This document shows positions 25,066 to 63,632 of a DNA stretch of 64,000 nucleotides, in pieces. The notes under the pieces are model-generated. The model had not been told where the DNA came from. It did no database searches and was given only the letters and a program-made list of their open reading frames with translations. The stretch spans positions 36,566 through 100,565 of the forward strand of contig CAYOFI010000004.1 of assembly GCA_964403335.1 (NCBI GenBank), read 5' to 3'. Made by a program: the position numbers and the translations under genes. This DNA is from an uncultured Candidatus Peribacteria bacterium. Its GTDB lineage: Bacteria; Patescibacteriota; Gracilibacteria; Peribacterales; Peribacteraceae. Each line of letters starts with the position of its first letter. Position 1 is the first letter of the stretch.

Positions 25066-26529
25066 TCATCGCCGCTTTGCCCTGAACACGCCTCCGCCCG
25101 CCCGCTTATCGAGCAGCAACTGCATATAATCAGCGGTCACATTCTTGAACGGCGCGGCCACGTCTTGTTCGCGGATATCGAATTCCGCCAGCACGCGCAG
25201 TTGTCCGATGGAGCAAATGGAGACTTCGTTGATATGGCCGTGGCCGGCCTCGCGCAGTTGGTGGTCCAGCATGTAGCCGCGGAAGTACGCCAGGTCTTTG
25301 GCCATCGCGAATTTGAGGGGGTTATGCATATCCAAGTGCCCGCGCATGACGCGGTACGACGTTCCCCATGCGGACTCCATCACTTTTTCATACAATGCCG
25401 GGTCTTTGACCTGCGTGTGCGAAAACGGCGTGTGGAAGGGGACGCCCAGTGCGATCCGGAGCCGTTTTTCCATCTGATCCACGAACACATCGTAAAACGA
25501 TCCGCCATTTTCAGCGGTGTGCACGGCAAACACATAGTAATCCAGGTTGCGCATCTCGTACTCGCCGCCGAAGTACGTACTGCGGAATCCCGTCTCGTAG
25601 CGCATGGCCAAGCCTTCGTAGAGGGTTTCTTCGTCAATCTTCAGCGGCCCGCCGCCGAACATGAACAACCGCTCGCCGTTCCACGATTGGCGCGCATGGC
25701 CTTCGATCTCATGGGCGATCAGTCCCAGGAGCCGCTCGCCCGTCTCGCGCGAACTTTCCGGCACGAAGACCGTGGGACCCTGCGCGGATTTATCGCGCAC
25801 ATCGATGGCCGTTGCGCGACGGTCGACCACCACTTGGTAGCCCTCGGTATTCTCCGGCGTGCGCAGTATTCCATACTGCTCCAGCGCCCACTCGAATGCT
25901 TCTTTCACGGAAGCGGCATCGAACATCAGCGTGCGCAGATACTGTTTTTCTTCATCCGAGAGTTTTCCGGGATTGCCTTCCATCGTTTCATTGCGCGCGG
26001 TGCGGTTCATGAAGTCTTTTTGTGCAAAGTCATAAATCAACGGGTCCACGCCGGGATATTTGTACTGCAACGCCTTGGCGATCTTGGATTCGTCTTTTTC
26101 CTGCACACCCAACACCAAATCGCACGTGGCCAAGTCATCTTTCAGCTTGTAGTAAAACATCAGCTTCATCAGTTTGCTGCTGCGGTCGGGCGTGGGGCAG
26201 GAGCGGACGTTTTCCAACATCTCCGTCAGGATCGCCGGGGCGTCGCCGAGGGGGAAATGTTCGGCGTAATCGTAGACGAAGCCGGGTTGATACGGCCGGT
26301 TGTTCCGGAAGGCCGCGAAGAATTTACGTTTCTCGTTCTGCAGGCTTTTGGGTTCCGCGGTATAAATCTCCACCGGATTCCATGACCCCGTGATGCCCGG
26401 CAGGCGCTCGGCAACATTTTTCAGCACCGCGGGCAGGTCGCTCACCTTCGGCACGGGAAGTTTGCGCACGTGCTTGCCCCGCCGCAGGAAGGCGGCAATC
26501 TCGGGGAGCGGTGAGGACGGTTTCTGCAT
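25066..26529 (-). CDS. DUF1704 / 'QEGLA-motif' family putative metallocarboxypeptidase (MATCAP-like), stand-alone
   Basis: AHEIEGH (HExxxH) is followed by ETLYEGLAMRYE. The start is set at the ATG at 26529, because the 679-aa extension is antisense to the next real gene. Confidence 0.7.
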   Translation of the reverse strand: MQKPSSPLPEIAAFLRRGKHVRKLPVPKVSDLPAVLKNVAERLPGITGSWNPVEIYTAEPKSLQNEKRKFFAAFRNNRPYQPGFVYDYAEHFPLGDAPAILTEMLENVRSCPTPDRSSKLMKLMFYYKLKDDLATCDLVLGVQEKDESKIAKALQYKYPGVDPLIYDFAQKDFMNRTARNETMEGNPGKLSDEEKQYLRTLMFDAASVKEAFEWALEQYGILRTPENTEGYQVVVDRRATAIDVRDKSAQGPTVFVPESSRETGERLLGLIAHEIEGHARQSWNGERLFMFGGGPLKIDEETLYEGLAMRYETGFRSTYFGGEYEMRNLDYYVFAVHTAENGGSFYDVFVDQMEKRLRIALGVPFHTPFSHTQVKDPALYEKVMESAWGTSYRVMRGHLDMHNPLKFAMAKDLAYFRGYMLDHQLREAGHGHINEVSICSIGQLRVLAEFDIREQDVAAPFKNVTADYMQLLLDKRAGGGVFRAKRR

Positions 26530-26619
26530 AGGTGAGCGCAAAGGGCCTGGTATATAGTGACGGTCGGGAGGGCGGTTTCTGTCGGAATACGGTTCCGCGA
26601 TCCCGGCAAGAAGAGTACC

Positions 26620-27285
26620 ATGACAGGGATGAAGATTTTCGCGTTGGAAACCAACGACGACAAGCTGGAAAAGAGCTTTTTGTCGCGTGATGAGGAGGTG
26701 ATCCTCCGCGTGAAGTTCAGCGGATTTCTCTTTGTCATGCGCACGTTGCGGACGCTGGTGATTTCCAGCGTATTTGTCGCCGTGGGGATCGGATTGGCCT
26801 ATCTGCAACTGCCGATCCTGTGGATCACCGTCGCCCTGTTGGCGGTGTGGTTTTTTGTGACGTTCCTTCCGTGGATAACCGCGTACATCGATTGGAGATA
26901 TGACACGCTGCTTGTCACCACCGAAGAAGTGGTCTGGGTGGACCAAAGCTCGCTCTTTCATGTCCATATCCGGCAAATGAACATGGACAACATCGCCAGC
27001 GTCTCCGCGGAAACGCAGTATCTGAATTTGTTTCCGTTCGGGAAGCTGCATTTTGATCTGAAAGAAGGGACCGGCAAGACGCTCATCCTCGGCTATATCC
27101 CGCACTCACAGCGTGTCGCATCCATCATCAGCGACGGCATCGTCCGTTTCCAGCGGCGCCGTGCCGCCGCAGCGGCAACGGCCGCAGTGGGCGGGTCACC
27201 GCAGCAAATTCAACAGGCGCAGGAGAACGCGGCTCCGACGCCGGGGGAGAAAGTGGCGACGGATGAGGGGGTGGAGAGGAAGTAG
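26620..27285 (+). CDS. Membrane protein with a bacterial PH (DUF304/YdbT-like) domain
   Basis: Two TM helices (LVISSVFVAVGIGLAYLQLPILWITVALLAVWFFVTFLPWI) are followed by a beta-rich domain. Confidence 0.55.
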   Translation: MTGMKIFALETNDDKLEKSFLSRDEEVILRVKFSGFLFVMRTLRTLVISSVFVAVGIGLAYLQLPILWITVALLAVWFFVTFLPWITAYIDWRYDTLLVTTEEVVWVDQSSLFHVHIRQMNMDNIASVSAETQYLNLFPFGKLHFDLKEGTGKTLILGYIPHSQRVASIISDGIVRFQRRRAAAAATAAVGGSPQQIQQAQENAAPTPGEKVATDEGVERK

Positions 27286-28995: not shown

Positions 28996-30393
28996 ATGCG
29001 TCCAATACCCGTGGAATCAGGCCTTGAGCGGCCTGACCAAATGCGTCCGGAGCAGAAAGTGCAGCAGCGTTTGCAGGCGGCGCAGAATTTGACGCGTACG
29101 TATGAGGGCAGAACGGGACGGTCGCCCGGCATGCTCTCGCAGTGGATCGGGCGGTTATGGCAGAGCATGAGTACGGCATTCTTCCGTCCGTCGCCGGCCC
29201 CGCGGCATTTCGCCGTGCAAGCCCCGGTCACCCCGCAGCCGTATAACAAGTTGCAGCCCGTTCCCCAGTTTGATGTTCCCTCGAAGAGTTTCCAGCAGCC
29301 TGCGGCTCCGTCTCCCTCTCCGGCGACGCCCTCCAAACTTGATGTCCGCGTGCAACCCGTGCAACCGCCCGTTACCGTCGTCTTTCCCAAAACTCAGCCG
29401 GAAACGACTGAGACTCTTCCGTCGCTGAAAGACTGTATCGACCGCATGTTCGCGGCATTGAGGGCGTACACCGGCGATGCGCCGAATGCGGATCCGACGG
29501 TCCGTGCCGCTCTGGATGCCTACGCCGCCGCATTTTTGCGGTCGCCTTACTACACCAAGATGCGCGAGGCGGATGCTCTGAATGGCGGGGCGAACAAGGA
29601 AATGCTTTCGCTTGCGCAGAGCGGGGATTTGGAAGGTTTACGCAAGGTCAACACCGCATATTCGCAGCGGCTGGGGGAGCGCGGTGGCGCTGCCAACCAG
29701 CCGGGTGTGGTGCTGAATGATGAGCAGCTTCTGCAGCTGCGCGACGGTTTGCTGCGCGATGCGGCGAAGACGCGGGCGACCGAACCGCCGTTGGCGCGTT
29801 TTACCAAGCTGTTGGATATTGCCGGAAACGCCCCAGGCTACCAATTAACGGTCACGGGGGAGGGGACGATCACGGTAGGCAAAAAAGGCCAAGCCGCTCC
29901 CGAGTCGCGCGACAACGAGCCGAAGGATCTGGCCGACAGCATCGTGCGGTTGGTTGCGGCGCTCAACGCGTATAAGGGGTCCGCTCCGGATGCCGACCCG
30001 GCCATCCGTTCGGCGGTGCGCACCTACGTCGAATTTTTCAAGCGCTCCCCCGAATACGCGGACATGATGTTTTACGATAAAACCGACGAGGATTGGTTCA
30101 ATGAAATAAAGCCTCTTGCGCTGGTCAACAACCGCAGCGGCATACGCGCGGTGAACGAAAAGTACTCAAAAATTTTGAAAGATCGGGGGGTTCCTGCGAA
30201 TCTGGACAACCGCTATATGCGTTTCCAGCTCCCCGAAAACCCCTCTGAGGTCATGGGATATTTGCTGACGGCTAAGCCCAAGCGTCGCACGCCTCTGCAG
30301 GAATACACCGCGAAGCTCAACATCGGGCAATTCGCTCCCGGCTACCGGCTGACGGTCGCGGCCAACGACGCGATCAGCGCGACCAGACAGTAA
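28996..30393 (+). CDS. Hypothetical protein with a Pro-rich N-terminus and two tandem ~155-aa repeats
   Basis: aa 141-298 and 308-465 align: L.D.I.R..AAL.AY.G.AP.ADP..R.A...Y...F.RSP.Y ... VN..YS..L..RG..AN ... APGY.LTV. Confidence 0.7.
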   Translation: MRPIPVESGLERPDQMRPEQKVQQRLQAAQNLTRTYEGRTGRSPGMLSQWIGRLWQSMSTAFFRPSPAPRHFAVQAPVTPQPYNKLQPVPQFDVPSKSFQQPAAPSPSPATPSKLDVRVQPVQPPVTVVFPKTQPETTETLPSLKDCIDRMFAALRAYTGDAPNADPTVRAALDAYAAAFLRSPYYTKMREADALNGGANKEMLSLAQSGDLEGLRKVNTAYSQRLGERGGAANQPGVVLNDEQLLQLRDGLLRDAAKTRATEPPLARFTKLLDIAGNAPGYQLTVTGEGTITVGKKGQAAPESRDNEPKDLADSIVRLVAALNAYKGSAPDADPAIRSAVRTYVEFFKRSPEYADMMFYDKTDEDWFNEIKPLALVNNRSGIRAVNEKYSKILKDRGVPANLDNRYMRFQLPENPSEVMGYLLTAKPKRRTPLQEYTAKLNIGQFAPGYRLTVAANDAISATRQ

Positions 30394-30411: not shown

Positions 30412-31152
30412 GTGGCCCGCGATCTCAAAAAAGCATTGGAAGAGCACAAGAAGGCCGAAGTGCACGGCAGCCGTTTAGGGCCTGTCATTCACGATATCGT
30501 CTATGGAGCGCATGACGGCATCGTCACAACGTTCGCGGTGGTGGCGGGAACCGCAGGGGCGGATTTGACGGCCGGCATCGTCATCATCCTCGGCATCGCC
30601 AACCTGCTGGCCGACGGCGTGTCCATGGGCGCGGGGGCGTTCCTCTCCGCCAAATCCGAGCGCGACCAATATCAGCGCCTGCTGAAAGAAGAGCTGCAGG
30701 AAATTGAAGATGATCCGGAACTGGAGCGCGAAGAGGTCCGTGAGTTTTACGAAAAGCGGGGATTCACGGGGAAGGACCTGGACCGCGTCGTGCAAGTGCT
30801 GACGTCCGACAAACGCGTCTGGGCGCACACGATGATGCGGGAAGAGCACGGTATGAGCGAGGACGGCGGCGGGCAGGGATGGAGGCCCGGCATCGCCACG
30901 TTCATCGGATTCGTCATCTTCGGAGCGGTGCCACTCCTGCCGTATTTCTTCGATGTTCCGCCGGAATATCGCTTCACAGCCGCCATCGTCGGGACGTTTT
31001 TGGCCTTGGTGCTGGTCGGGGTGACGCGCAGCATCGTCACGCGCGAACGCATCTACCGCGGCGCAATCGAAATCGTGATCATCGGCGCAGTCACGGCATC
31101 AATCGCCTACGGGGTGGGAGTGGCGCTCAAAGGCCTGGCGGGCGCCGTTTAA
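30412..31152 (+). CDS. VIT1/CCC1 family iron/manganese transporter
   Basis: [21 protein letters not shown]...[19 protein letters not shown], a central acidic loop and C-terminal TM helices. Confidence 0.85.
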
Positions 31153-31571
31153 ATCGCGGTCATGCTCAGCCAGATGCCGATGAGCGTGATGGCGGATCCA
31201 AACAGGATGCCGCCGATGACTTCCACGAACGTGTGCCCCAAGCGTTCCGGGAACTTGGACCACTTTTGCAGTTTGTTCAAGATCTTCGCCTGCTCGCCGA
31301 TCGCGCGGCGCGAGTTCATGGCGTCGTACCAGGTGATGCTGGCGAAACAGAAGGCGATCGCGAACGCGATGCTTTCCAGCCCCGTCTTCCACCACACGAT
31401 AATCAGCAACGACATCACGAATGCCGAGTGCGTGGAGGGCATGCCGCCCGGCCGGAAAAACCCGCCCTTGAACGTTCCTTTCTCGTATCGTTCCGAAAGA
31501 ATCTTTGTCGTCTCACACAAAAACATGACGACGAGCGGGATCAAAAATGGATACTGGCGGAGGAGGGACAT
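31149..31571 (-). CDS. Divergent PAP2 (DUF212, acid phosphatase/vanadium haloperoxidase-related) membrane protein
   Basis: [15 protein letters not shown] ... [17 protein letters not shown] ... [14 protein letters not shown]. Confidence 0.75.
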
Positions 31572-31597: not shown

Positions 31598-32656
31598 TCA
31601 GGGGACGAGCTCAAATTTCGCGCTCTTGCTGCCCAGTTTGATCTCCGCGTCGCCGTTCTTCATTTTCCGGATGATGTCATTGAGCTCCGCAATGGTCCAG
31701 ACTTTTTCCTCCTCTCGCGTTCTTTTCGTAGGTGCAGCACTGGTATTAAGCACTCCCCAGTCTCCTCTTGGATATTCGTTGTATTCCACTCTTCCACCGA
31801 TCTGCAGTCCGTTGGCTGCCCAGACGGATTTGGTTATTTCCGGCGTGAGTTCCGTATCGTTTGTCCTCAAGAAAGCTTGTTCATGAAAAGCCAATTCCCG
31901 CTTGAAAGAATATTTCTTTCCGCCGACGGTGATCAGCTTTCCTTCGATTTTCACAGGAACTTCAACGCCGTCAATTTTGATGCTTTTGTTCTGACCGAGA
32001 ATGTCTTCACCCACGGCAATGGACGGAGTTTCGAATGCCCCGGGCGCGGGAGGCGCCGCCGACACGTTGTTTCCCGTGACATAGTTGTAGAGCGAATATC
32101 CTCCGTAGGCCATACCCCCGTACCAGAGTACGTTCTTGGCAAAACTCCATATGCCGCCGCCGACGGTGCCGGCGACGCTCTTGGTTCCGCCCCACAGCCA
32201 CCCCAATGCCTTGTATGCCAATAACGCTGCGCCGACGCCGGCGAGTGCTATCGTCTGGCCGGGATTATCGCGCGCGTAGCCTTGCAGCCAGCTCACCTGC
32301 TTGTGGGCCCAGTTGGGGAGCGCGTCCACCCACTCGTTGCCCGTGGTGGAAACGGGTTGCAGCACCCCGAAACGGCTCATGGTGTTGGAGGCGCGCTGCA
32401 GTTCGTCGATGGCCTGTTGCTGCTCCAGCGTCTTTGTGGGCAACGCGTTCAAGAGTTCGAGTTTTGTCGTGATGAGCGTGTGCAATTTCGCCGTCTCCGC
32501 GTTGTGCTGCGCTTTCAGCAATTCCATGTTCGTGGGGTCGCAGATATCCCGCAATTTTTGCAATTCCAGGTGCGTGGGATTGCCTGCATTCAAGGCGTCC
32601 TTCACTTCAGTCACCTGAGTTTTGAGAGTTTCGATGGGGGAAGCGGCGGGGGTCAT
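31598..32656 (-). CDS. Orphan protein 4 of a four-gene operon (coiled N-terminus, Gly-rich bilobed hydrophobic centre, beta-rich C-terminus)
   Basis: The start ATG at 32656 lies 2 nt after the upstream stop. It has an N-terminal TLKTQVTEV motif and the central segment TIALAGVGAALLAYKALGWLWGG...VAGTVGGGIWSFAKNVLWYGGMAYGGY. Confidence 0.7.
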   Translation of the reverse strand: MTPAASPIETLKTQVTEVKDALNAGNPTHLELQKLRDICDPTNMELLKAQHNAETAKLHTLITTKLELLNALPTKTLEQQQAIDELQRASNTMSRFGVLQPVSTTGNEWVDALPNWAHKQVSWLQGYARDNPGQTIALAGVGAALLAYKALGWLWGGTKSVAGTVGGGIWSFAKNVLWYGGMAYGGYSLYNYVTGNNVSAAPPAPGAFETPSIAVGEDILGQNKSIKIDGVEVPVKIEGKLITVGGKKYSFKRELAFHEQAFLRTNDTELTPEITKSVWAANGLQIGGRVEYNEYPRGDWGVLNTSAAPTKRTREEEKVWTIAELNDIIRKMKNGDAEIKLGSKSAKFELVP

Positions 32657-32658
32657 GG

Positions 32659-34119
32659 TCAGGCGGTGGGAGTGACGTAGGTCCACGTGTTGCCGACATA
32701 TTCAAAACGCGAGTCGATCGGCCGTGCGGCGTTGTCCAATTCGGTCACGGGCAGCAGTCCGAGCGCGGCGGGAGTGCGCAATTGCGCTTCGGAGTTCCAG
32801 GTGAGCGTCAGTCCCGCGGTGGCGGCCTGCCGGCGGATGGCCGGGATGGTGCCGCCCATGGCGGGGTCGTAGCGCATCACCAGGAGATTCGTCTTCTTCA
32901 TGGCTTTGGCCATCTCTCCCAGCTGTTGCTGGACGGGGGACGGGGTGGAGAGCGGGACTTTTATCGTCACGTTGTCGCCTTGTTTTTCTAAAGTGACCGG
33001 CGCATCGGTCCCCAGGATTTCGATGCCGTGAATCGCTTCCGATGCGGACAGCAGTTCTTTGAGCTTCGTCGCCTCGGGGCCTTTCAATGTTCCTGCGGCC
33101 AGATCTATCAGCTCGCGTCCCAGCGTGACGGCGAACTTTCCGCTACCGCTACGCAGAGCGGAAGCCTTGCGGCCGTCGGTGAGAGTCAGGTCCACGTTGC
33201 CGCCCAACGCGTCGATGATTTTTTGAGAATCTTTCTTCTCGGCTTCGACTTTTGCTTTTGCTTGGATGTCATTGGCGCCGAGGATCGCGGAGAACGTCAG
33301 GGACTTATTCGGTGCATCGCCAAGCGAGGAGACCGCAAGATTGCAGAGTTCCTGCAGCTTGTTCGGCCAGCTCTCCGGCGGTGTGCATTTGGCGATGAAG
33401 CCGTTCACTTGCAGCGCCGTGATTTTCTCCGCATTCGCGAGCGTCCAGCCCGTGGGCAAGGAATTGCGGATGGTCTGAATGGCATTATTGCGGTTTGCGC
33501 CATCGATGAAGAATTTGCCCATGGGGTTGTCCTTCGGGACCATCATGGTGCCCACGGTGAAGAACATGCCCGTCATACTCTCCCAAATTTTGGAGCCCGC
33601 ACCTTGGGTATCGGATGCGGTGCTGGCCGCGAACGATTCAAAAATCCACCCGATGCCCGGGATGCCGGACATCTTTTGCAGCAGATCGGAGACGAAAGTT
33701 CCCAGCTTACCTGCCGCCTTGTTGATGGTGGCGGAGGCTGGCGTGGATGACGGTGCTGCAGGCGCATTCGCCGCAAGCAGTTTGTCCAACTGCGCCATGC
33801 GCGCGGTGATGGTACCGTCCACGTTTTTTGCGAGCTTCTGCATGTTTTCCTTGATGCCCACATCCACGATTTTTTCGATGTTTGCCAAATGCTCGCGCTG
33901 CTTGGTTTGCACGCTCTCGATGAGCGCCGTTTTCAGGTTTTCCACTGTGCGCAGGTTCTTGACCGCATCCGGAGAATCCAGCACGCGCGCCATCAACGGC
34001 CCCAATTCCTCTGCCGTGCTCTTCAGCACTTGTTCGCGCAGCTGCACCGCATCCGGCGACTTGCCCTTCAGAATGTTGAAGGCGTTTTCTGCCGGTGTGG
34101 GAGGTGTGTTTGTGGCCAT
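32659..34119 (-). CDS. Orphan protein 3 of a four-gene operon (486 aa)
   Basis: The ORF is long and uninterrupted, whereas the opposite-strand ORFs are fragmented and Arg/His-rich. It has a helical N-terminal third and the hydrophobic segments GIPGIGWIFESFAAS / MTGMFFTVGTMMV. Confidence 0.7.
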   Translation of the reverse strand: MATNTPPTPAENAFNILKGKSPDAVQLREQVLKSTAEELGPLMARVLDSPDAVKNLRTVENLKTALIESVQTKQREHLANIEKIVDVGIKENMQKLAKNVDGTITARMAQLDKLLAANAPAAPSSTPASATINKAAGKLGTFVSDLLQKMSGIPGIGWIFESFAASTASDTQGAGSKIWESMTGMFFTVGTMMVPKDNPMGKFFIDGANRNNAIQTIRNSLPTGWTLANAEKITALQVNGFIAKCTPPESWPNKLQELCNLAVSSLGDAPNKSLTFSAILGANDIQAKAKVEAEKKDSQKIIDALGGNVDLTLTDGRKASALRSGSGKFAVTLGRELIDLAAGTLKGPEATKLKELLSASEAIHGIEILGTDAPVTLEKQGDNVTIKVPLSTPSPVQQQLGEMAKAMKKTNLLVMRYDPAMGGTIPAIRRQAATAGLTLTWNSEAQLRTPAALGLLPVTELDNAARPIDSRFEYVGNTWTYVTPTA

Positions 34120-34125
34120 GGGCGT

Positions 34126-35703
34126 TTAGGCGAGATCGATAGTCTTGTCCGCTTTGACGATGACTTTTGTTTTGCGTGTGGGATTCGTGCGATCAGCAAC
34201 AATCTTGTCAACGATGTCACTGAGCTTCACGACGGTCTTGCCGCTTGCCGTGCTGATTTCCACCTGCACTTCTTCGGGCTTTTCGCCCGTTACGGGAGCG
34301 AGAAGCTTGATGCCCGTTGGCTCGGCATCACCTTGCGCACGCAGCAGATACGATTTGTCCGCTCCATCCGGCTCCACGAAGAGTTTCTTTTTATCGATGT
34401 GCACTTTTTTGTCTGCATATTCGAATTTCTGTGCAGCATCGCCAGGGGCGAATTCGCCCTTGATGAAATCCACACCGCCTATTTTTTTCGGTGTTTCGGC
34501 CGGAGCAGTCGTGGGTGCCGCTGGGGGAGCGGTGAGCCTCTTGTCGATCTCCTGCTTCACCTTCGCGAATTCGTCGCGGTATTCCTTGGCGGATTTTTCG
34601 TCCTCCAGCATGAGCATGGTGGGCATGGAGAGCATGGCCACGTCGATCTTGTTGTTCTTGCCCAAGCGCGTGTATTTTTCCCACTCCGTGAATTCCTTGT
34701 TCCACTCCGCCACCAACGCGGCTGACGGGGCGGAGCCTTTGACGTTCATGTAGGCGATGACCTGGTTTTCCTTGTGCATGGCCCGTCCGAACGCGCGGAT
34801 CTGCTGCTCGGCAATCGTTCCCGGCGTGATGAAGAGCGCGAAATCAGCGATGAAATTGCGGATGAGGTTGCCCAAGAACGTGACGGTCTGTTTTTCATCC
34901 ATACCGGCCCACTGCTTGAACATTTCAAACACGGACGGGGGCAACTTGGTGAGTGCGGCATCAATGCCCAACGTCACTTTCTGTGCCATTTGCGCAGGGC
35001 CTTTGGGGGGAGCGGGGGGCGGTTCAGGCAGGCCAGATGCCTTCGCCAAATCTCGCAGTCTTTTCTGCACTGCCTCCTGTTTGAGATCCAATGCAAGTAT
35101 GTTGTCTATAAGCGTGCCGCCGATACCTTCCACGCCGAAACGTCTGGCCAATAGGCCTTCCATAAGACTGATGTCGGCAGTTGCTTCGGGTTTATCAAGC
35201 AATTTTTTGAAGGCGTCTGTGAGATTCTTCAAATCTTCCTGTTTGACGTTTTCTCCCAATTTTTGCAGCTGCTCATGCACGCTTTTAAACTCCGCAGATC
35301 GTTCAGTCGCTGCGGGACTTGTAGCCGGCTTGTCCAAAACAGCGATGAGTCTGTCCAAATTTGTTGCAACCAAGCTCGGTCTGTTAACTTGAAAATCAGC
35401 TTTGAATTGATCGAGGATCTGATCAAATGTTGATGTGGCAAGCGCTGCCGCGGCGGGATTCTCTGCGATCATCATTTGCAGTATCGTGCCGCGCAGTTCG
35501 ACGATTCTCGGATCTCTTTCGCCGAAAGCAGCAATCAATTGTTTTGCTTCCAATTTTAACGGTTCCAAATTCACCCTTGCACCCGCAGAAAGAGTGGCGA
35601 CCTGTGTCTTCAGCGCTGTTGCCGCGGTTTTGACTTTCTGCAGCTGCGCAGCTTTGGCGGCTTCCGGTGCGGCCGGTGGGCGTGGTGCCTCGGGTGTGGA
35701 CAT
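34126..35703 (-). CDS. Orphan protein 2 of a four-gene operon (525 aa)
   Basis: It has a Pro/Ala N-terminus, a helical region with ALKTQVATL, two PPAP-type linkers and a beta-rich C-terminus. The gap to the next gene is 6 nt. Confidence 0.7.
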   Translation of the reverse strand: MSTPEAPRPPAAPEAAKAAQLQKVKTAATALKTQVATLSAGARVNLEPLKLEAKQLIAAFGERDPRIVELRGTILQMMIAENPAAAALATSTFDQILDQFKADFQVNRPSLVATNLDRLIAVLDKPATSPAATERSAEFKSVHEQLQKLGENVKQEDLKNLTDAFKKLLDKPEATADISLMEGLLARRFGVEGIGGTLIDNILALDLKQEAVQKRLRDLAKASGLPEPPPAPPKGPAQMAQKVTLGIDAALTKLPPSVFEMFKQWAGMDEKQTVTFLGNLIRNFIADFALFITPGTIAEQQIRAFGRAMHKENQVIAYMNVKGSAPSAALVAEWNKEFTEWEKYTRLGKNNKIDVAMLSMPTMLMLEDEKSAKEYRDEFAKVKQEIDKRLTAPPAAPTTAPAETPKKIGGVDFIKGEFAPGDAAQKFEYADKKVHIDKKKLFVEPDGADKSYLLRAQGDAEPTGIKLLAPVTGEKPEEVQVEISTASGKTVVKLSDIVDKIVADRTNPTRKTKVIVKADKTIDLA

Positions 35704-35731
35704 ATAGTGTGTGTGAGAATTCAGAGAAGAA

Positions 35732-35962
35732 TCAGGCGGCTTTTTGCATGCCTAACGCCGCTTCTGCTGCGCGGCCGAGGGAGGCGAAGTATTGTTCCAA
35801 TTCTTTTTGGAAGGGCAGTTCATCGGGCACGTTCAAAATGTTCCACAGCTTTTGGGATTGCGTGCTGTTTAAGCTGGGCAAGTTTTTCAGCCAATACTCA
35901 CGTTCCGGCTCGCTGAGCAGCGGGCTGCGTTGGATAAGCTGGACAAGAGCTTTGGTATCCAT
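35732..35962 (-). CDS. Orphan protein 1 of a four-gene operon (76 aa)
   Basis: The small helical ORF MDTKALVQLIQRSPLLSEPEREYWLKNLPSLNSTQSQKLWNIL... lies at the head of the operon. Confidence 0.5.
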   Translation of the reverse strand: MDTKALVQLIQRSPLLSEPEREYWLKNLPSLNSTQSQKLWNILNVPDELPFQKELEQYFASLGRAAEAALGMQKAA

Positions 35963-36105
35963 AATGGGTGTGGGTATGTGAAGGTTTCCGAGTATTGTAC
36001 CATTTTGCGATGTTTTTCACAAGCAGTCACAAAAGGGGGTTTCAACCGTCTTCCCTTTGCACCCCCGATCCTCTATCGTCGGGGTGTTTCTTCCGCCCCC
36101 CCTCT

Positions 36106-36462
36106 ATGAATGTGCAGCATTTCGAGAAAGGGCTTCACTATTCGGATACCGATTTGCTCGCGCTGGCGCGGAAAATCGGCAAATTGGCCACGTATTGCAA
36201 GCGCCTGAAAAACGCCGATTCCTTGATCCGTGTGGAGTCCGAAAAGCGTCCCACCCAGAAGGATCGCGACCAGGTGAAAGTGATGATCACCGTGGATTTG
36301 CCGGGTGCGCAGCTGCGCGCGGAATCGCGCAGATTGTTGGTGGTGGATGCCGTGGACCGGTGCATTGAAAAACTGGAACCGCAGATCAAGCGGTACAAGG
36401 AAAAGCGCACGGGGCGGAATCGGGCCCATCAAAAGTCCCGTTCCCGCGACCTTGCCGCATGA
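36106..36462 (+). CDS. hpf: Ribosome hibernation promoting factor / RaiA family
   Basis: MNVQHFEKGLHYSDTDLLALARKIGKLATYC...VKVMITVDLPGAQLRAESRRLLVVDAVDRCIEKLEPQIKRYKEK. The ATG at 36106 lies inside the longer tracked ORF. Confidence 0.8.
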   Translation: MNVQHFEKGLHYSDTDLLALARKIGKLATYCKRLKNADSLIRVESEKRPTQKDRDQVKVMITVDLPGAQLRAESRRLLVVDAVDRCIEKLEPQIKRYKEKRTGRNRAHQKSRSRDLAA

Positions 36463-37994
36463 GGTTCCGCCCGGCCGCCATCGGCGCGGCACTCTGCTCT
36501 CTGGTGTTGGTGCCGGTGAGTCTGTTTGCGCAACAAGAGGCGCCTGCTCCACCCGTGGCGCCGGATGTGACGGCCAGTATCATCGGGCCCGATGACGTGC
36601 CCGTGGGGCGACGCATCATTTTGGATGCCTCGGCCAGCCGCACCATCGGCAGCAACGTGCGGTATGAGTGGTATGTGGGTTCGTCGCCCGAACCCATCAG
36701 CACGACGGTCGACGCGATTTTTACGCCGGACCGCCCGGGTCCCATCGAATTCCGCTTGGTGGTGCGATCCACGGTGAACGGCGAAACGGTGGAAGATGAA
36801 GAGCGGCTCACCGTCACCGTCTTCACCCGCAAAGTGGTGGTGATCGCGGATGCCACCATCACGCAGCAAAAATTGGATGTCTTACGCCGCGCCGCGGCAT
36901 CGGGTTCCACGTACCTGCGCGTCTTGCAGTCACCCGTGTCGTCCGCAAGCAGAGGAGGGGAGGAGGCGTTGGCGGCGCTGCTCTCCGAACAGGGGGATGT
37001 GCTCTTGGATGCGGAGACGATCGTGCTGTGGACCGATGGCGTGCCGACTCCCGGTTTGTATGCGCTGCTCCATGCGGTGCAGAACAATGAGCAGTTGCAG
37101 CTGAGCATGCCGCTCCACCCATTGATACTCGCAACGGATTTGAATATGCACACGGTTGCGCGCGGAGGGAAAGGCATCATCTCCGTCTTAAAGCCGCGCC
37201 AGGCATTGGTGATGCGGCCATCGCTTTTGGAAATGCTGGTGGGAGCCAAAAGCGCCGAGGCTTTCACGCAGCAGGCCTTCCAAATCCCTTCGGCAAATCC
37301 GCTGATCCTGGACACCTCCGTCGTCCGGATTCCGTGGTATTACCCCCTCACGCATTTGACCGACGCCATGCTCGGCGCCGGAGTATCCAGCCAGACGGTT
37401 CTTCTGCTGCTCGTCCTCCCGGTCATCGCGACCATTTTGGCATTCCTCAAGCAGATCGTCGGTATCACCACATTCGGGCTGTTCACGCCCGCCATCATCG
37501 CGCTGAGTTTCTTGGCGCTGGGATGGGAAGTGGGAGTGCTCTCGCTCCTTTTCATCCTGATGACGGGCTACGCGTCGCGCACGCTCATGCGCAGACTGCA
37601 CATCCTCTACATTCCGAAAATGGCGATCATCTTGGGCATCGGCAGCTTCACGTTGTTGTTCCTTGTGGGTATCGCGGCGGTCTTCAAAGTCTATCTCAGC
37701 CACGACACGATCTTCGTGCTGCTCATCATGAGCACGCTTGTGGAAAGCTTCCTGAACGTGAAATCCGAACAAGGATTGAAATCCGCCATCTTCGCCATCG
37801 GTCAGACGATCGTGGCGGCTCTGCTCTGCGTCATGTTGGTGCAGTGGTCGCCGTTTAGGGCCCTCATCCTCGGCTATCCCGAAGTGATCTTGATCACCGT
37901 GCTCATCAACATCCTCATCGGACGATGGACGGGACTCCGGATCTCGGAATATTTCAGATTCAGGGAAGTGTTTAAGCATCTTGTTCAGGAATGA
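36459..37994 (+). CDS. Membrane protein: signal peptide, PKD-like extracellular region, and a C-terminal multi-TM domain of the '7TM usually fused to inactive transglutaminase' type
   Basis: The start overlaps the hpf stop (ATGA). It reads ILDASASRTIGSNVRYEWYV, then QIVGITTFGLFTPAIIALSFLALGW plus about 6 further helices. Confidence 0.6.
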   Translation: MRFRPAAIGAALCSLVLVPVSLFAQQEAPAPPVAPDVTASIIGPDDVPVGRRIILDASASRTIGSNVRYEWYVGSSPEPISTTVDAIFTPDRPGPIEFRLVVRSTVNGETVEDEERLTVTVFTRKVVVIADATITQQKLDVLRRAAASGSTYLRVLQSPVSSASRGGEEALAALLSEQGDVLLDAETIVLWTDGVPTPGLYALLHAVQNNEQLQLSMPLHPLILATDLNMHTVARGGKGIISVLKPRQALVMRPSLLEMLVGAKSAEAFTQQAFQIPSANPLILDTSVVRIPWYYPLTHLTDAMLGAGVSSQTVLLLLVLPVIATILAFLKQIVGITTFGLFTPAIIALSFLALGWEVGVLSLLFILMTGYASRTLMRRLHILYIPKMAIILGIGSFTLLFLVGIAAVFKVYLSHDTIFVLLIMSTLVESFLNVKSEQGLKSAIFAIGQTIVAALLCVMLVQWSPFRALILGYPEVILITVLINILIGRWTGLRISEYFRFREVFKHLVQE

Positions 37995-38000
37995 AGATCT

Positions 38001-38064
38001 TTTAGTTATTGGTTTCTGGTTTTTGGTTTCTGGTTTTAAACGAAAAACTAGAAACTAAAAACTG
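38001..38064. repeat. Tandem-heptad inverted repeat, family D: (TGGTTTY)4 ... (AAAAACT/AGAAACT)
   Basis: tggtttc tggtttt tggtttc tggtttt (38010-38037), loop aaacg, then aaaaactagaaactaaaaact. The element begins 7 nt after the 7TM gene stop. Confidence 0.8.
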
Positions 38065-38097
38065 TGCTCATCTTTTCCTTTATTTCTACTCTCCTCC

Positions 38098-40617
38098 GTG
38101 TTCCCTCTTTTCCGCCACGGCATTCTCGGCCTGAACGCGCGCAACCTGCTGTATCTTCGGCCGTATAATCCGAAGAAGGCGGTCGCGTTTGCGGACGACA
38201 AGATGAAGACGAAGGCATTCCTCTCCGCGCGCGGGATTCCGACGGCAAAAGTGTACGCACGCATAGAAAACCGCGAGCAGCTCCGGCATTTTAACTTTGC
38301 CAGTTTGCCTGATGAATGCGTGCTCAAGCCCAACTACGGATTCGGCGGAGAGGGAATCATCATCTTGAAAGGCCGGAAAAACGGGCAGTTTTTGGAGCAG
38401 GGGAAGAAGCCGATCACGGATGACCGGTTGCGCGAACACATCGAAGATATCTTGGACGGAAAGTTTTCGGTCAACGGGCGCAATGACATGGCGTTCTTTG
38501 AAAAAATCCTCGTCGCCCATGAAGGTTTTGCGCCATTCCGTCCCGCGGGTCTTCCGGATATCCGCTTCGTCGTTTTCAATTTGGTGCCGGTGATGTCCAT
38601 GCTTCGCGTGCCCACCGTCCAAAGCCAGGGGAAAGCGAACGTGCACATGGGCGGACTGGGCATCGGGATCGATATCGCCAAAGGCACGACGACGCACGCC
38701 TTTCAGTATTCCAGTCTTCTCAAAGAGTTGCCCCATGGGGGCGATCCTTCCGGCATCCCCATTCCGTTTTGGGAAGAGATGCTGCTGATTTCCTCCAAGA
38801 TCCAGTACACCACCAATATCGGCTATTTGGCGGTGGATCTGACGATCGACAAGGATCAAGGCCCGGTGCTGCTGGAGGTAAACGCGCGTGCGGGATTGAT
38901 GGTGCAGGTGGCGAACTTGGCGCCGTTGCGTTCGCGTTTGGAGCGCGTGAAGGGTCTCTCCGTCAGCTCGCCGGAGAAAGGCGTGCGCATCGCGCAGGAA
39001 TTGTTCGGGGAGAAAACGCGCGAGCGGCATGTGTCCGCTTTGGGATCGCATAAATCGGATGACCGCGACCGGCCGCGCTTGGGGCTGCGTGAAACGCTGA
39101 TCGTGCATGCGAAGGGCGTGAATGTCGAAGTCCCGGCGCTCCTCAGTCCCGCCACCTCCGAGTTCACGATTTTTTCGAACACCTTGCTCAAAGAACTGGA
39201 AAAACAAGGCGGCGCCGAATCCGTCACGGAGAAAGAATCTCCCGATGATGAAGACGAACTTGTGGCGGCCGTGGCCCACACCTCGGCACCGAACGTCAGC
39301 GAGAAGGCGTACCGCATCAAGGCCACGCTGGGCGGAAAGAAAATTCAAACTCTCGTGCATGCGGCGGCCGTGCCGTTCCCGGGAGTCCGTGCCGTCATCG
39401 GCCGGCGCGATCTGACGGGTTTTTACATCGACCCGAGCAAACAATTTTTGGCGGACTCGTCGTTGATCGATCATCGTCTGAAAGCCGATCTGCGCGCCAC
39501 GGACCGTATCCTCAGTCAGGTCGATGAAGAGCTCCTGCTCCTTCGGCTCCTCAAACCCGTCAATCTCCCCGAAGAGCGGTTGCGACTGGAGGCGGATACC
39601 GCTTACAGCCCGCACTTCCAGTATCCGGCGTTGCCGGAAGGCATTGAAGACATGGAAAAGCGCTTGGAAAGGTTGCCGACGGACGATTCGCCGCTTGGGG
39701 TCTTGCTCGGCAAAAAGAAGCGTGAACTCCTGATGCGCATCGCCCTTATCCGCGCGCGCGGCGATGCCGGACGGTTCACGTTGGCTTCCCAGGCATTGTT
39801 TGGCGCCCCGCGTGCGGACATCATCTCCGCCGCATCACGCTTTTTGCGTGACCGCGTCGCGTGCGATCTGCCCGTTCCCGACAATCAACTGCTCTCCGCC
39901 GAAGACGCATCCAAACAATTTGAAGAAGTGCTCAACCGCTACGGACTTCATGATTGGCAGATTGTCGTCCGTTCCTCCATGGTCGCCGATTGCGCCGTGG
40001 GGTGGAAGCGGCTCTATATCCGCCAAGGCGCGCGTTTCTCGCCCATGCACCTCCAATCATTGATCTCCCACGAAATTGAGACGCATATTTTGACGGCGGA
40101 AAACGGTGCCGAGCAGCCGTCGGATTTGTTCCGCCGCGGCTTTGCCGGGTACTTGGATACGCAGGAAGGCTTGGCGACGTACAACCAAAACCGCGTGCTC
40201 TCTCCGTACCACGATAAGCGCTACGGCCCCGCGCGCGGCGTGCTGGCCGTCGTCTACGCGCTGGAACATTCCTTCGTGGACACGCGCCGCTATCTGGAGG
40301 CGGAACTGGGATACACGCCGGAAAAGGCGCTGACGAAAACGATCGAGCTCAAGCGCGGATTGCAAGATGCCTCCGAGCCGGGGTCCTTCACCAAAGGTCT
40401 GGTGTATTTCCGCGGTATGCGGGCCATTGAGCGCTATGTGGCGGAAGGCGGCGATCTGAAACGCTTGTATGTCGGGAAGGTCGCCTTGGAAGATCTGGAA
40501 TTGATCGAGAAAATCGACGGCCTGAAGGCGCCGTTGTTGGTTCCGGTCTTCCTCCGCGAGAAAAAAGAGGACAAGGATGCGGGAGGGAAGGGGGGAAAGA
40601 AGGGGAAGGAGGAGTGA
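38098..40617 (+). CDS. Fusion protein: RimK-related ATP-grasp 'alpha-L-glutamate ligase-like' domain + DUF1704/QEGLA (MATCAP-like) metallopeptidase domain
   Basis: GTG start. The N-terminus reads GILGLNARNLLYLRPYNPKKAVAFADDKMKTKAFL...VLKPNYGFGGEGI...LLEVNARAG. The C-terminal part has HEIETH (40069-40086) and QEGLA (40162-40176). Confidence 0.8.
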   Translation: MFPLFRHGILGLNARNLLYLRPYNPKKAVAFADDKMKTKAFLSARGIPTAKVYARIENREQLRHFNFASLPDECVLKPNYGFGGEGIIILKGRKNGQFLEQGKKPITDDRLREHIEDILDGKFSVNGRNDMAFFEKILVAHEGFAPFRPAGLPDIRFVVFNLVPVMSMLRVPTVQSQGKANVHMGGLGIGIDIAKGTTTHAFQYSSLLKELPHGGDPSGIPIPFWEEMLLISSKIQYTTNIGYLAVDLTIDKDQGPVLLEVNARAGLMVQVANLAPLRSRLERVKGLSVSSPEKGVRIAQELFGEKTRERHVSALGSHKSDDRDRPRLGLRETLIVHAKGVNVEVPALLSPATSEFTIFSNTLLKELEKQGGAESVTEKESPDDEDELVAAVAHTSAPNVSEKAYRIKATLGGKKIQTLVHAAAVPFPGVRAVIGRRDLTGFYIDPSKQFLADSSLIDHRLKADLRATDRILSQVDEELLLLRLLKPVNLPEERLRLEADTAYSPHFQYPALPEGIEDMEKRLERLPTDDSPLGVLLGKKKRELLMRIALIRARGDAGRFTLASQALFGAPRADIISAASRFLRDRVACDLPVPDNQLLSAEDASKQFEEVLNRYGLHDWQIVVRSSMVADCAVGWKRLYIRQGARFSPMHLQSLISHEIETHILTAENGAEQPSDLFRRGFAGYLDTQEGLATYNQNRVLSPYHDKRYGPARGVLAVVYALEHSFVDTRRYLEAELGYTPEKALTKTIELKRGLQDASEPGSFTKGLVYFRGMRAIERYVAEGGDLKRLYVGKVALEDLELIEKIDGLKAPLLVPVFLREKKEDKDAGGKGGKKGKEE

Positions 40618-57136: not shown

Positions 57137-58057
57137 ATGTCGCCCCGCATCATTTTCATCACCGCGTTCGCCGCCATCATTCTCCTGTTCCTGATTGTCG
57201 ATTTAGGAGTGATGAACCGCAGCGCGCACAAGGTGTCGGTCAAGTCCGCTGCCTGGCAGAGCTTGTTTTGGATCGCGGTGTCATTGTTGTTCGCGGGGAG
57301 TTTGTTTCTCTTCTATGACCACACCAAGGCGATTGAATTCCTGAGCGCGTATACGACGGAAAAAATGCTGTCGGTGGATAACCTGTTCGTGATTTTGCTG
57401 ATCTTCAATTATTTCAAGGTCGAGGAGAAATATCAGCACCGCGTGCTGTTCTACGGCATTCTCGGCGCCATTGTCATGCGGGCGCTCTTTATCGGGTTGG
57501 GATCGGTGGTGGTGTCCATGTTCCATTGGATCTTGTACATCTTCGGCGCGATGCTCATCTACGCAGGCATCAAGTTGCTCTTTGAGAAGAAAGAAGAGCA
57601 CGTCGATTTCCGCAACAGCAAGCTCTATAAATTGGCGCACAAGATGTTTCGGTTCACGAGCAACCATCATAACGGGAAATTCATGGTGCGGGAGAACGGC
57701 AAATGGTTCTTCACGTCGCTCTTCCTGGTCATGATCCTTATCGAATGGACGGACCTCATCTTCGCCGTCGATTCCATCCCCGCCGCGTTTGCCATCTCCC
57801 AGGATCCGTTCGTGATCTACACCGCCAACATCTTCGCCATCTTAGGGCTTCGCGCTATGTTCTTCCTGCTGGAAGCCGTCATCCACAAGTTCCACCATCT
57901 CCAAAAGGGCTTGTCGCTGGTGCTGATTGTCATCGGCGGCAAGATGCTCCTGGAGATTTTTCATATCGAGATTTCGTCATTGGTGTCCTTCGTGACGGTC
58001 ATGGCGTGTCTGGGAGGGTCGCTGCTGCTGTCGGTGCTGTTTCCGAAGAAGATCTAA
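57137..58057 (+). CDS. TerC/Alx family integral membrane protein
   Basis: EKMLSVDNLFVILLIF ... TDLIFAVDSIPAAFAISQDPFVIYTANIFAILGLRAMFFLL. Confidence 0.9.
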   Translation: MSPRIIFITAFAAIILLFLIVDLGVMNRSAHKVSVKSAAWQSLFWIAVSLLFAGSLFLFYDHTKAIEFLSAYTTEKMLSVDNLFVILLIFNYFKVEEKYQHRVLFYGILGAIVMRALFIGLGSVVVSMFHWILYIFGAMLIYAGIKLLFEKKEEHVDFRNSKLYKLAHKMFRFTSNHHNGKFMVRENGKWFFTSLFLVMILIEWTDLIFAVDSIPAAFAISQDPFVIYTANIFAILGLRAMFFLLEAVIHKFHHLQKGLSLVLIVIGGKMLLEIFHIEISSLVSFVTVMACLGGSLLLSVLFPKKI

Positions 58058-58062
58058 CGATC

Positions 58063-58545
58063 ATGATTGATGTTGAGTCCATTCGCGCTCTTGTCGCCCC
58101 CGTCGTGATGATTTCTGCGCAGGGGCTTATTTGTTTGGCTCTCTATAACCGTTTGGCGGCTGTGGTCGGCCGCTTGCGGATGTTCTCGCGGGAACAATTC
58201 GACGTGCGTCTGCATGTGGGCGGCACCGCCTCAACACCTCATGATGACGATACGCTCCGCGCGATACAAGCACGTCTGCAGACCTTGGATGATCAGTATG
58301 CGGGTGTTCTCCGCCGGGCAGGGTTGTTGCGTAATGCGTTGATTCTCCTGCAGTCGGGGGTGTTGGCAATGCTCATATGCATTTTGTTTTTGGGTGTCTC
58401 GCTCCTGTTGCCGGGCATGGAATCCTGGTCGCTTGTGCCGTTCTTCATCGGCATCCTCGCCACGGCAAGCGGAATTGCCATATCCATCCACGAACTTGCC
58501 ACCGCCTTGGAGCCTGCCAAAGCGGAACAGAATTCCTTTCGGTAG
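58063..58545 (+). CDS. DUF2721 domain membrane protein
   Basis: ALVAPVVMISAQGLICLALYNRLAAVVGRLRMFSRE... plus two C-terminal TM helices. The ATG at 58063 lies inside the longer tracked ORF. Confidence 0.7.
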   Translation: MIDVESIRALVAPVVMISAQGLICLALYNRLAAVVGRLRMFSREQFDVRLHVGGTASTPHDDDTLRAIQARLQTLDDQYAGVLRRAGLLRNALILLQSGVLAMLICILFLGVSLLLPGMESWSLVPFFIGILATASGIAISIHELATALEPAKAEQNSFR

Positions 58546-58751
58546 CAGTCTGGTATATTGGTAAGTTTGGATATGGAAGTGGCAGCCCCTAGTAGAGACT
58601 ATTCGAACCTTCTGGGAGGAGTCACAAGAGGTATTTGATCTACCTGTTCTTTCTGCATGCTGATGCAATTACACAGCGTCAGATTTCCTTTATTCGTTGT
58701 GAACTTCACACTACGAAAATTGGTTGGGCTGTGGCAAACTATATTTTAACC

Positions 58752-59717: not shown

Positions 59718-59733
59718 AATTACCTCAAATGCC

Positions 59734-60378: not shown

Positions 60379-60652
60379 ACGTGCAGAAAGGCTCTGCATT
60401 CGTGATATACAAGCCGTAATTCCGCAAAATTCCCTCACTGCAATTTTGCAACTTGAGGGAAGGTTTGGCCTTCAGGATGTTCAAGTAGTAGGGATGCTCA
60501 CAAATTTGAGAAACGGGTATAGGTATTACTTTCTCTGTCCACGCTGTGATCAGGCGTTTGTAAGCCTCTATCGCCAGGACTTTGGACAATACGCCTGTCG
60601 GCGTTGTCTGGGTTTGTTCTACGCTTCTTCGATGCGTGTGGAGATCACTTAA
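60356..60652 (+). CDS. Hypothetical zinc-ribbon protein (98 aa)
   Basis: YYFLCPRCDQAFVSLYRQDFGQYACRRCLGLFYAS (CxxC...CxxC). It overlaps the upstream gene by 23 nt. Confidence 0.5.
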   Translation: MTQNSLIERAERLCIRDIQAVIPQNSLTAILQLEGRFGLQDVQVVGMLTNLRNGYRYYFLCPRCDQAFVSLYRQDFGQYACRRCLGLFYASSMRVEIT

Positions 60653-60863: not shown

Positions 60864-60952
60864 CCCTCTAAGTATCGGGATGGTTCGATACTCTTTACAC
60901 CGTCATATGTGACGGTGTAGGCTCCAAGACAACTATTGCCCCCTCACCTTTC

Positions 60953-61699: not shown

Positions 61700-61717
61700 C
61701 CCTCTCTATTTTTTGAT

Positions 61718-62170: not shown

Positions 62171-62173
62171 TCC

Positions 62174-63550: not shown

Positions 63551-63632
63551 TGAGCAAATTTTATTGCACAGAATGTTTGTACTGCGCAATAAAGGCAGAG
63601 ACGGTGTGTAGGCTATTTTCTACTTCTTCCCT

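Follow-up and report, generated by a model that had tools for sequence, protein, structure and literature searches.

A large part of bacterial diversity belongs to the Candidate Phyla Radiation (CPR, or Patescibacteria), whose members are thought to live on other cells; to our knowledge, hardly any of the proteins that mediate this lifestyle have been identified. CPR genomes often contain orphan operons, and lineage-specific variable islands of membrane- or surface-type proteins are a familiar sight in them. We report here on four adjacent genes, called A, B, C and D below, that lie on the minus strand of a 64,000-nucleotide stretch of DNA from an uncultured Candidatus Peribacteria bacterium (assembly GCA_964403335.1, contig CAYOFI010000004.1, positions 36,566 to 100,565); this whole stretch is referred to as the window, and these 64 kb are the genome context that was inspected.

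Several described systems come close to this locus. Peribacteria are inferred to be symbionts whose strain variation is concentrated in large exported proteins and, in Candidatus Peribacter riflensis, a member of the same class, such strain-variable exported or surface proteins have been proposed to act in attachment to partner cells (PMC4736985). The LXG/WXG substrates of type VII secretion systems (T7SS), together with their Lap/EsxA partners, share with our locus a small helical gene upstream, helical N-terminal domains, variable C-termini, rapid divergence and a monoderm host. Mycobacterial PE/PPE proteins likewise have a Pro-Glu near the N-terminus ahead of a helical domain, variable C-termini, an arrangement in arrays and a fast evolution. 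The translocators of type III secretion systems (T3SS) with their class II chaperones, and the tripartite ClyA family (Nhe/Hbl/Ahl), also form sets of two or three proteins, helical and about 350-600 aa long, that have central hydrophobic segments and are encoded together with a small accessory protein. Finally, chlamydial Inc proteins have a bilobed hydrophobic domain (about 40-60 aa) between helical flanks and form lineage-specific, fast-evolving families without homologues elsewhere. With LXG/Lap loci, Inc proteins, translocator operons and PE/PPE arrays, our locus has single architectural features in common, but it belongs to none of these groups.

Our central result is that the four genes occupy a fixed slot between hpf, which encodes a ribosome hibernation factor, and a backbone made of (PD-(D/E)XK nuclease)-DUF212-proS; the cassette in this slot is best explained as an accessory, rapidly diverging one that is specific to Peribacteria/Peregrinibacteria (CPR). 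In the window, the unit opens with A (76 aa, 35732-35962) and continues with B (525 aa, 34126-35703), C (486 aa, 32659-34119) and D (352 aa from its ATG, 31598-32656), all open reading frames (ORFs) of the minus strand. A preliminary description, made from the sequence alone, had placed these ORFs 28, 6 and 2 nt apart, and their positions and spacing are exactly as it claimed. It had also called them a four-gene operon, and the four genes are as described, but the operon was one gene short: 26 nt past D, on the same strand, lies gene E (140 aa, 31149-31571), which encodes a DUF212 / divergent PAP2 protein (PF02681, E 7.6e-33), an integral membrane protein that closes the unit. The DUF212 gene follows the cassette in the window and in loci L002, L003, L006, L007 and L010, and is part of the conserved backbone, not of the variable cassette. 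On the other side, hpf (PF02482; 36106-36462, plus strand) is a divergent neighbour that stands outside the operon.

The 143-bp spacer between hpf and A holds the putative promoter of the unit (35994-36022, minus strand), which was located by a consensus scan and by conservation in six related loci. Lying about 30 nt ahead of the start of A, it consists of TTGTGA, a 17-nt spacer and a TG-extended TACAAT, and the TTGTGA and TGnTACAAT elements are in register in all six loci; this good comparative evidence points to the sigma-70-type element as the probable promoter, and we infer that the cassette is transcribed as one unit. Rfam and tRNA scans gave no match near the operon. As for initiation codons, D could also start at a GTG at position 32686, which would give a protein of 362 aa; the ATG was retained because the family alignment favours it.

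The minus strand had been taken as the coding one, and three lines of evidence agree with this choice. The GC content of the three codon positions of A to D (about 0.55-0.59 / 0.36-0.46 / 0.62-0.74) is like that of the housekeeping genes of the window, whereas that of the long antisense ORFs of the plus strand is unlike it; identical calls for the four genes were obtained in an independent assembly (Logan SRR12487045); and each of A to D has homologues, in the same gene order, on other contigs. On these three grounds, we consider A to D to be genuine genes and not chance ORFs of a GC-rich sequence.

Conservation as a unit in related genomes, which the preliminary description had put forward as a check, is borne out. 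A phmmer search with B against 1.84 billion representative proteins returned five distant homologues only (E 4e-9 to 4e-4), and all five lie in the same layout, hpf pointing away from a small protein followed by B, C, D, DUF212 and often then proS, two of these contigs being shorter than the unit (L009 ends just past B, L005 before any DUF212). At these five loci, the small protein has 67-82 aa, the B homologue 407-710 aa, and the proteins in the C and D positions 103-625 and 276-364 aa, respectively. Two Peribacteria metagenome-assembled genomes (MAGs) have three large genes in the same slot. We then retrieved 74 further metagenomic loci with an hpf alignment as an anchor, and built and iterated a hidden Markov model (HMM) for each family; the HMMs recovered 36 ORFs for A, 23 for B, 14 for C and 20 for D, almost always in this slot and in this order, bearing in mind that these locus and ORF counts include duplicate and related sequences. 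Nearly all the 36 A homologues directly adjoin hpf and diverge from it. An A-like ORF of 113 aa (L073/L074, 19849-20190, plus strand; E 3.9e-6 to the A profile) lies about 10 kb from hpf, at the end of the locus, so that gene-A-type domains may also exist outside the slot.

The content of the slot is variable, with 0 to 7 genes across loci. At the lower end, the slot is empty on the 757-kb contig L029 (9000-10342), where hpf is directly followed by the PD-(D/E)XK nuclease, DUF212 and proS, and L012 and L016 have a single, Pro-rich slot gene (325-379 aa). Three or four slot genes are found in the clade of the window, which has no PD-(D/E)XK nuclease between D and DUF212, and five to seven in other lineages; in these larger slots, the usual order is A (in some cases), two proteins of about 400 and about 450-520 aa, then a D-like hairpin protein, a Gly-rich ORF of 65-105 aa, a giant protein, the nuclease and DUF212.

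A contrast between conserved ends and a hypervariable middle is seen in the rates of divergence. Between the window and its closest relative, L006, the A and DUF212 proteins are 79% and 84% identical, while identity falls to 20% for B, 32% for C (over the full length, E 1.7e-57) and 23% for D; hpf is 59-73% identical among the compared loci, and the prolyl-tRNA synthetase (ProRS) is 72% identical between two MAGs. In the close pair L070/L075, the ratio of nonsynonymous to synonymous substitution rates (dN/dS) is 0.11-0.28 for the cassette genes and 0.02-0.03 for hpf and DUF212. Constraint on the cassette genes is thus relaxed, and selection is still purifying where it could be measured, that is, in this pair. 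One 418-aa cassette gene (L070, 8179-9435; L075, 6414-7673) has a dS of 0.10, against 0.5-0.9 for its neighbours, which suggests a recent recombination or gene conversion confined to that gene.

Such extremely fast divergence in a compact cassette would also fit a remnant of a prophage or other mobile element, with tape-measure or ejection proteins, or the target of a diversity-generating retroelement (DGR), and D does give a weak match to a PHROG tape-measure family (phrog_794, D residues 109-171, E 5e-5). This match of 63 residues only covers positions 501-563 of a profile of 763, in a Gly-rich hydrophobic stretch, and we judge it compositional. B, C and D had no match by tblastn in 50,697 phage records, no relatives in IMG/VR and no structural match in BFVD, and the slot keeps the same chromosomal position across the whole class. 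Neither another phage gene, an integrase, a tRNA nor a flanking repeat was found at the locus. A DGR could be suspected from a bAvd-like gene that adjoins DUF212 in L007 and L008; yet there is no repeat of at least 30 nt between positions 28000 and 37000, hence no template/variable pair, and no reverse transcriptase among the scanned neighbours. Because repeats, tRNA and integrase are missing and relatives are lacking among phage records, IMG/VR and BFVD, we regard a mobile-element or DGR origin as extremely improbable. The bAvd-like gene itself encodes a 104-aa four-helix bundle of the bAvd / 23S-rRNA-IVP type and sits between DUF212 and proS (L007, 12352-12666; L008, 5389-5703), with no reverse transcriptase visible in that locus.

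The preliminary description recognised no domain in any of the four proteins, and our searches agree. Pfam, NCBIfam, PHROGs and PADLOC all stayed below threshold with A to D, and a Pfam scan of all members of the family alignments gave nothing consistent. B, C and D, used as queries in word-indexed searches of 5.8 billion proteins, returned only themselves, and A to D are all singleton clusters. No significant match came out of profile searches of the PDB, whether made with the alignments of the four families, with the C-terminal domain of C, or with a giant protein and the PT-TG protein of sister lineages that are described further on; a Foldseek comparison of the B model with the PDB and BFVD gave no match at E <= 0.001. 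In so far as they fall under no curated family, the four families are new. Of the results that would have spoken against the preliminary description, namely a known family, genes not kept together and coding on the plus strand, we obtained none.

The anatomy of the proteins was deduced from the family alignments, from AlphaFold2 (AF2) models and, for transmembrane segments, signal peptides and coiled coils, from crude scores of our own (Kyte-Doolittle (KD) hydropathy and a heptad test). The A protein is small, acidic and helical, with the motifs ERxYWLxNLP and ELPF and the family-invariant residues E20, R21, W24, L39 and F51. It matched nothing in Pfam, the PDB or chaperone families; a role as an adaptor or chaperone-like protein, as first suggested, would fit its position and its conservation. 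B is predicted to begin with a Pro/Glu-rich N-terminus; helical bundles follow (about residues 13-391), and a Pro/Ala linker then connects to a small C-terminal beta domain. Within its family (alignment A4, 15 members), conservation is highest in a central segment at residues 254-298 (34810-34944, minus strand), LPPSVFEMFKQW...FALFITPGTIA, with conserved LPPxV, W-GM and F-A-F columns. C has a helical N-terminal half, a weakly hydrophobic segment GIPGIGW...FFTVGTMMVP at residues 152-195 (33535-33666) and a C-terminal domain of about 190 aa that is its most conserved region; G157, G316 and W479 are invariant in its family (alignment A7).

D (alignment A6) is predicted to comprise a helical N-terminal domain (about 1-130), a bilobed Gly/Trp-rich hairpin, a Pro-rich linker and a C-terminal beta-rich domain. 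Its hydrophobic stretch, already pointed out in the preliminary description, lies at residues 133-193 (32078-32260, minus strand), where a 5-residue loop, WGGTK, splits two lobes, and it recurs across the D family; it is a probable membrane hairpin or anchor. KD hydropathy of the two lobes is 1.64/0.75 in the window, while both lobes have 1.9-2.3 in the relatives L041 and L044 and in giant slot proteins, and reach 1.8-2.3 over the D family and the giants. The D family and the giants have the same design, a helical N-terminal domain of 110-180 aa and then two lobes 5-25 residues apart around a K/R-rich loop, with the hairpin at about residues 110-230. The charge distribution around the D hairpin does not decide its topology. 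The bilobed domain of Inc proteins is matched by D 133-193 in architecture only: Inc proteins depend on a T3SS and have their hairpin near the N-terminus, whereas that of D is at about 130-200, and there is no sequence similarity between them.

The three large proteins had been credited with a common plan, and this holds to an unequal extent. Pro/Ala/Thr N-termini are confirmed and prove to be a general trait of the proteins encoded in the slot: those of the window are Pro-rich and acidic (MSTPEAPRPPAAPE, MATNTPPTPAE and MTPAASPIE), and at least 2 Pro occur in residues 2-16 in 67% of 108 slot proteins against 15% of 122 control ORFs of equal overall Pro content, and 61% of the slot proteins, but 6% of the controls, have a P[ED] within residues 2-26. 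The controls are ORFs from the other side of hpf, and the slot proteins come from several unrelated families and are not phylogenetically independent; for this reason, and because a housekeeping protein of the window has a similar N-terminus, we describe the Pro/acidic N-terminus as enriched, not exclusive. A central hydrophobic segment was expected in all three proteins and is clear in D (1.64), but it is marginal in B (hydropathy maximum 1.46) and below threshold in C. A long, coiled-coil-like helical region fared similarly: helices do appear in the AF2 secondary structure, but none exceeds 31 residues, and the heptad test found no coiled-coil signal that was significant against shuffled sequences. 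The LKTQV motif is present as described (ALKTQVATL at B 30-38, TLKTQVTEV at D 10-18), but since it is conserved in neither family, the shared pentapeptide looks coincidental. Beta-rich C-termini, predicted as small domains behind a Pro/Ala linker, are seen in the models, but only in low-confidence ones, and the lack of a signal peptide is confirmed by the lack of any N-terminal hydrophobic core.

Read as common ancestry, the common plan finds no support: BLASTP found no significant similarity among B, C and D, and hhalign between their family profiles gave a probability of at most 22%, so that paralogy is not demonstrable. B, C and D share an architecture without demonstrable relatedness. The models themselves were of low confidence, because only six sequences went in: AF2 reached a pLDDT (predicted local distance difference test) of 47.7 on D alone and, with a 6-sequence alignment, of 57.7 on B, with moderate confidence at residues 12-125 and 300-390 and poor confidence elsewhere. 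Cys is rare, with 3 residues in the 1439 of A to D where about 13 would be expected from the 0.92% of housekeeping proteins, and makes up about 0.17% of families B and C; the large proteins of Candidatus Peribacter riflensis, by contrast, have predicted export and in many cases a very high Cys content (PMC4736985), while A to D have no signal peptides.

These features can be set against the speculative likeness to pore-forming translocators or membrane-remodelling proteins that the preliminary description offered. Spelled out, the large proteins would be secreted pore-formers or translocators that insert their hairpins into a target membrane, with the 76-aa A protein as their chaperone. The central Gly-zipper-like segments are indeed marginally hydrophobic, a small conserved helical protein is encoded first, and B, C and D evolve fast. 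Marginal hydrophobicity is typical of proteins kept soluble before membrane insertion, such as secreted transmembrane effectors. The idea draws slight circumstantial help from this property of the hairpins and from the PT-TG protein in the slot of a sister lineage. The database searches lend it no support: the only toxin-like signal, NheA (NF051436) against C residues 10-114, amounts to 13.3 bits for a cut-off of 500 (E 0.029) and is noise; Pfam found no toxin or translocator family in 10 C-family members, the Pfam and NCBIfam scans found no IpaB/SipB, IpaC/SipC or other T3SS-translocator family, and the PDB and Foldseek comparisons gave no match. Moreover, B, C and D are not paralogues, unlike the components of tripartite ClyA-type toxins, and in comparison with both groups they have extra C-terminal beta domains and no apparatus genes. 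A has about half the size of the class II TPR chaperones (about 150-170 aa) and has no TPR or chaperone-family match. T3SS or injectisome genes were not seen among the annotated neighbours in the window, and we know of no T3SS in CPR bacteria. All in all, a translocator function seems improbable.

The slots of sister lineages bring polymorphic toxins into the discussion. A 704-aa slot protein in L070, also present in L075, has a PT-TG domain (PF14449, 28.2 bits for a cut-off of 23.5). This domain marks trafficked polymorphic toxins; in monoderms, it is mostly fused to the LXG/WXG domains of type VII substrates, and small helical partner genes often lie upstream (PMC13483458). The first 140 residues of the 704-aa protein are related to those of the L021 giant protein (1658 aa) and of slot proteins of 424-467 aa, as determined by jackhmmer seeded with the L021 giant, run at a database size of 1e5 with decoys made by reversing and shuffling. 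An N-terminal module that would link B, C and D to the giant and PT-TG proteins was also considered and rejected: it appeared in lax jackhmmer runs only and was lost with decoys, with a stringent database size and with hhalign. The Pfam scan found no PT-TG domain in A to D, and none of any kind in six giant proteins. In addition to their hairpin at about 110-230, the giants have more hydrophobic segments near residue 1000. In sister lineages, an ORF of 65-105 aa, Gly-rich (e.g., ...VGTGSLLATGVGGVVGAGGTIIGGTLDG...), always stands directly before the giant protein of 1200-1865 aa (L015 5717-5983, L021 6790-7044, L041 4784-5053, L054 5726-5923, L060 7093-7290 and others).

It could be argued that the slot encodes a divergent analogue of T7SS LXG/WXG (or PE/PPE-like) substrates, A being the Lap/EsxA-like partner of proteins with variable C-terminal effector domains. 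In its favour, a small helical gene lies directly upstream of large proteins that have helical N-terminal domains and variable C-termini; P-E-type motifs are found at the N-termini; and the PT-TG protein of L070 belongs to a group that mostly goes with LXG/WXG domains and Lap-like upstream genes (PMC13483458). However, no LXG (PF04740), WXG100 (PF06013), PE or PPE match was obtained at E <=1 with the window proteins or their family members. The scanned ORFs of the window include no EssC-like ATPase or other T7SS gene, no toxin/immunity pair is recognisable in the window, and the available portions of the literature on Patescibacteria and type VII secretion give no sign of a T7SS in these bacteria. 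A is upstream and conserved, yet has no detectable relation to the Lap/DUF3130/DUF3958 families. Unlike in LXG/WXG systems, the window proteins have no LXG, WXG100 or PT-TG signature and no toxin/immunity module, and D has a central membrane hairpin that LXG toxins lack. Unlike in PE/PPE proteins, there is no PF00934 or PF00823 match and no ESX locus, and the position of the motif is not fixed; the P-E of slot proteins may simply cap the first helix. Both the translocator and the T7SS-like explanations lack each of their defining features that could be tested, and we hold the latter to be quite improbable as well.

The reading that we favour, tentatively and at somewhat less than an even chance, is that of an accessory, membrane-anchored complex of the envelope or of the host interface. 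The two-lobed Gly-rich hairpin of D would hold this protein in the membrane, B and C would be mostly helical partners with small C-terminal beta (binding) domains, and A would be a small conserved subunit with an assembly, adaptor or chaperone-like role. The products of A to D would together form a membrane-associated envelope complex, located at the surface or the cell-cell interface of the episymbiont and serving to attach to a partner cell, to exchange material with it or to antagonise it. A membrane placement is supported by the hairpin of the D family and the giants and by the fact that the unit ends with an integral membrane protein. The proposed interface role would explain the fast divergence of B, C and D, the variable number of genes in the slot, and the presence in sister lineages of giants and of a polymorphic-toxin-type protein.

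One has to keep in mind that a number of observations weigh against an envelope or host-interface complex. None of A to D has a signal peptide, and the annotated parts of the 64-kb window showed no gene of a secretion system. By hydropathy, B and C have no convincing transmembrane segment, and even the D hairpin is only marginally hydrophobic in the window and its closest relatives (KD 1.64/0.75, 1.14/0.98 and 1.05/1.17). The structure models, with their pLDDT of 47.7 and 57.7, are of low confidence. The link between the toxins of sister lineages and B, C and D is positional only, because stringent thresholds gave no tie. A housekeeping tRNA methyltransferase of the window is also Pro-rich at its N-terminus, and Cys depletion, which we considered as evidence of export, is ambiguous, as exported Peribacteria proteins can be Cys-rich (PMC4736985). 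Lastly, a fixed locus and a conserved order are also what is expected of a vertically inherited structural operon under low sequence constraint.

This last point leads to the other explanation that deserves attention, in which the proteins are never exported and form a membrane-tethered scaffold or cytoskeleton-like complex of lineage-specific structural proteins, involved in cell shape, in division or in a polar or attachment organelle, and drift fast since only helical packing is constrained. The Pro-rich, helical proteins of the Mycoplasma terminal organelle would be similar in style. The lack of signal peptides, the mostly helical proteins, the fixed locus with a gene order kept across many loci, and the purifying but relaxed selection are all in line with such a scaffold; the hairpin would leave both termini of D on one side of the membrane, and Pfam and NCBIfam find no ATPase, toxin or immunity gene in the window cassette. 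It is, on the other hand, odd for core architecture that the cassette should be absent (L029) or reduced to one gene (L012, L016) and that gene number and family content should vary so widely; in a sister lineage, moreover, the slot holds a PT-TG protein, and no coiled-coil signal was detected. We think this explanation unlikely, while taking it seriously.

The envelope or host-interface complex could be carried one step further. The hpf slot would then be an effector locus of an unrecognised, signal-peptide-independent trafficking in Peregrinibacteria, where the Pro/acidic leader, helped by A, would direct delivery to the surface or to the membrane of the partner, and the hairpins of D and of the giants would insert there and build or remodel a feeding contact zone. 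Patescibacteria do have type IV secretion systems (T4SS), type II-like secretion systems and type IV pili, and the T4SS is essential in Saccharibacteria (PMC12857230). A signal-peptide-independent route, the T4SS, is thus present in the phylum, but nothing ties such a route to A to D. The present evidence shows no new mechanism, and we see this extension as a long shot.

What has been gained is that anonymous ORFs have become a defined unit, from promoter to DUF212, in a slot easily located beside hpf, with four new families, conserved ends set against hypervariable middle genes, and a recurrent hairpin architecture also found in the giant proteins and, in sister lineages, next to a polymorphic-toxin-type protein. 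If the host-interface role is true, the slot would be a marker for interaction genes in uncultured Peregrinibacteria and a place to test a new export signal; if the proteins are cytoplasmic scaffolds instead, it would offer a rare glimpse of a CPR-specific cell architecture.

The annotated neighbours of the unit in the window are ordinary genes, for an archaeal/eukaryote-type ProRS, a VIT1 transporter, a 7TM_transglut protein, an ATP-grasp/MATCAP fusion and a GT2 glycosyltransferase; an ABC transporter, a DEAD-box helicase, methyltransferases and a histidine kinase are found farther out. The 7TM protein is 57-62% identical to its counterparts in Candidatus Peribacteria MAGs. On the plus strand, 36459-40617 encodes this 7TM_transglut protein and then the 839-aa fusion, which joins a sugar-transfer-type ATP-grasp to a MATCAP (tyrosine carboxypeptidase-like) domain; another MATCAP-like protein (679 aa, 25066-27105, minus strand) lies 11 kb away, and the trio of 7TM_transglut, ATP-grasp-MATCAP and MATCAP-like proteins is also found beside hpf in L007.

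Between VIT1 and proS, the window has a second variable stretch of the backbone, occupied by a 465-aa orphan (28996-30393, plus strand), a singleton without a Pfam match. Its Pro-rich first third precedes a tandem pair of modules, each about 155 aa long, which begin with ...ALRAYTGDAPNADPTVRAALDAYAAAFLRSPYY... and ...ALNAYKGSAPDADPAIRSAVRTYVEFFKRSPEY... and each end with APGYxLTV. Finally, positions 58000-64000 have a lower GC content (0.45-0.49) than the remainder of the window (about 0.57), and this segment may be foreign or recently acquired; two adjacent ORFs in it (61718-62170 and 62174-63550) start with the same zinc-ribbon-like motif, CPFCAEEIK...CKHC, the second one having a DUF4352 domain in addition.

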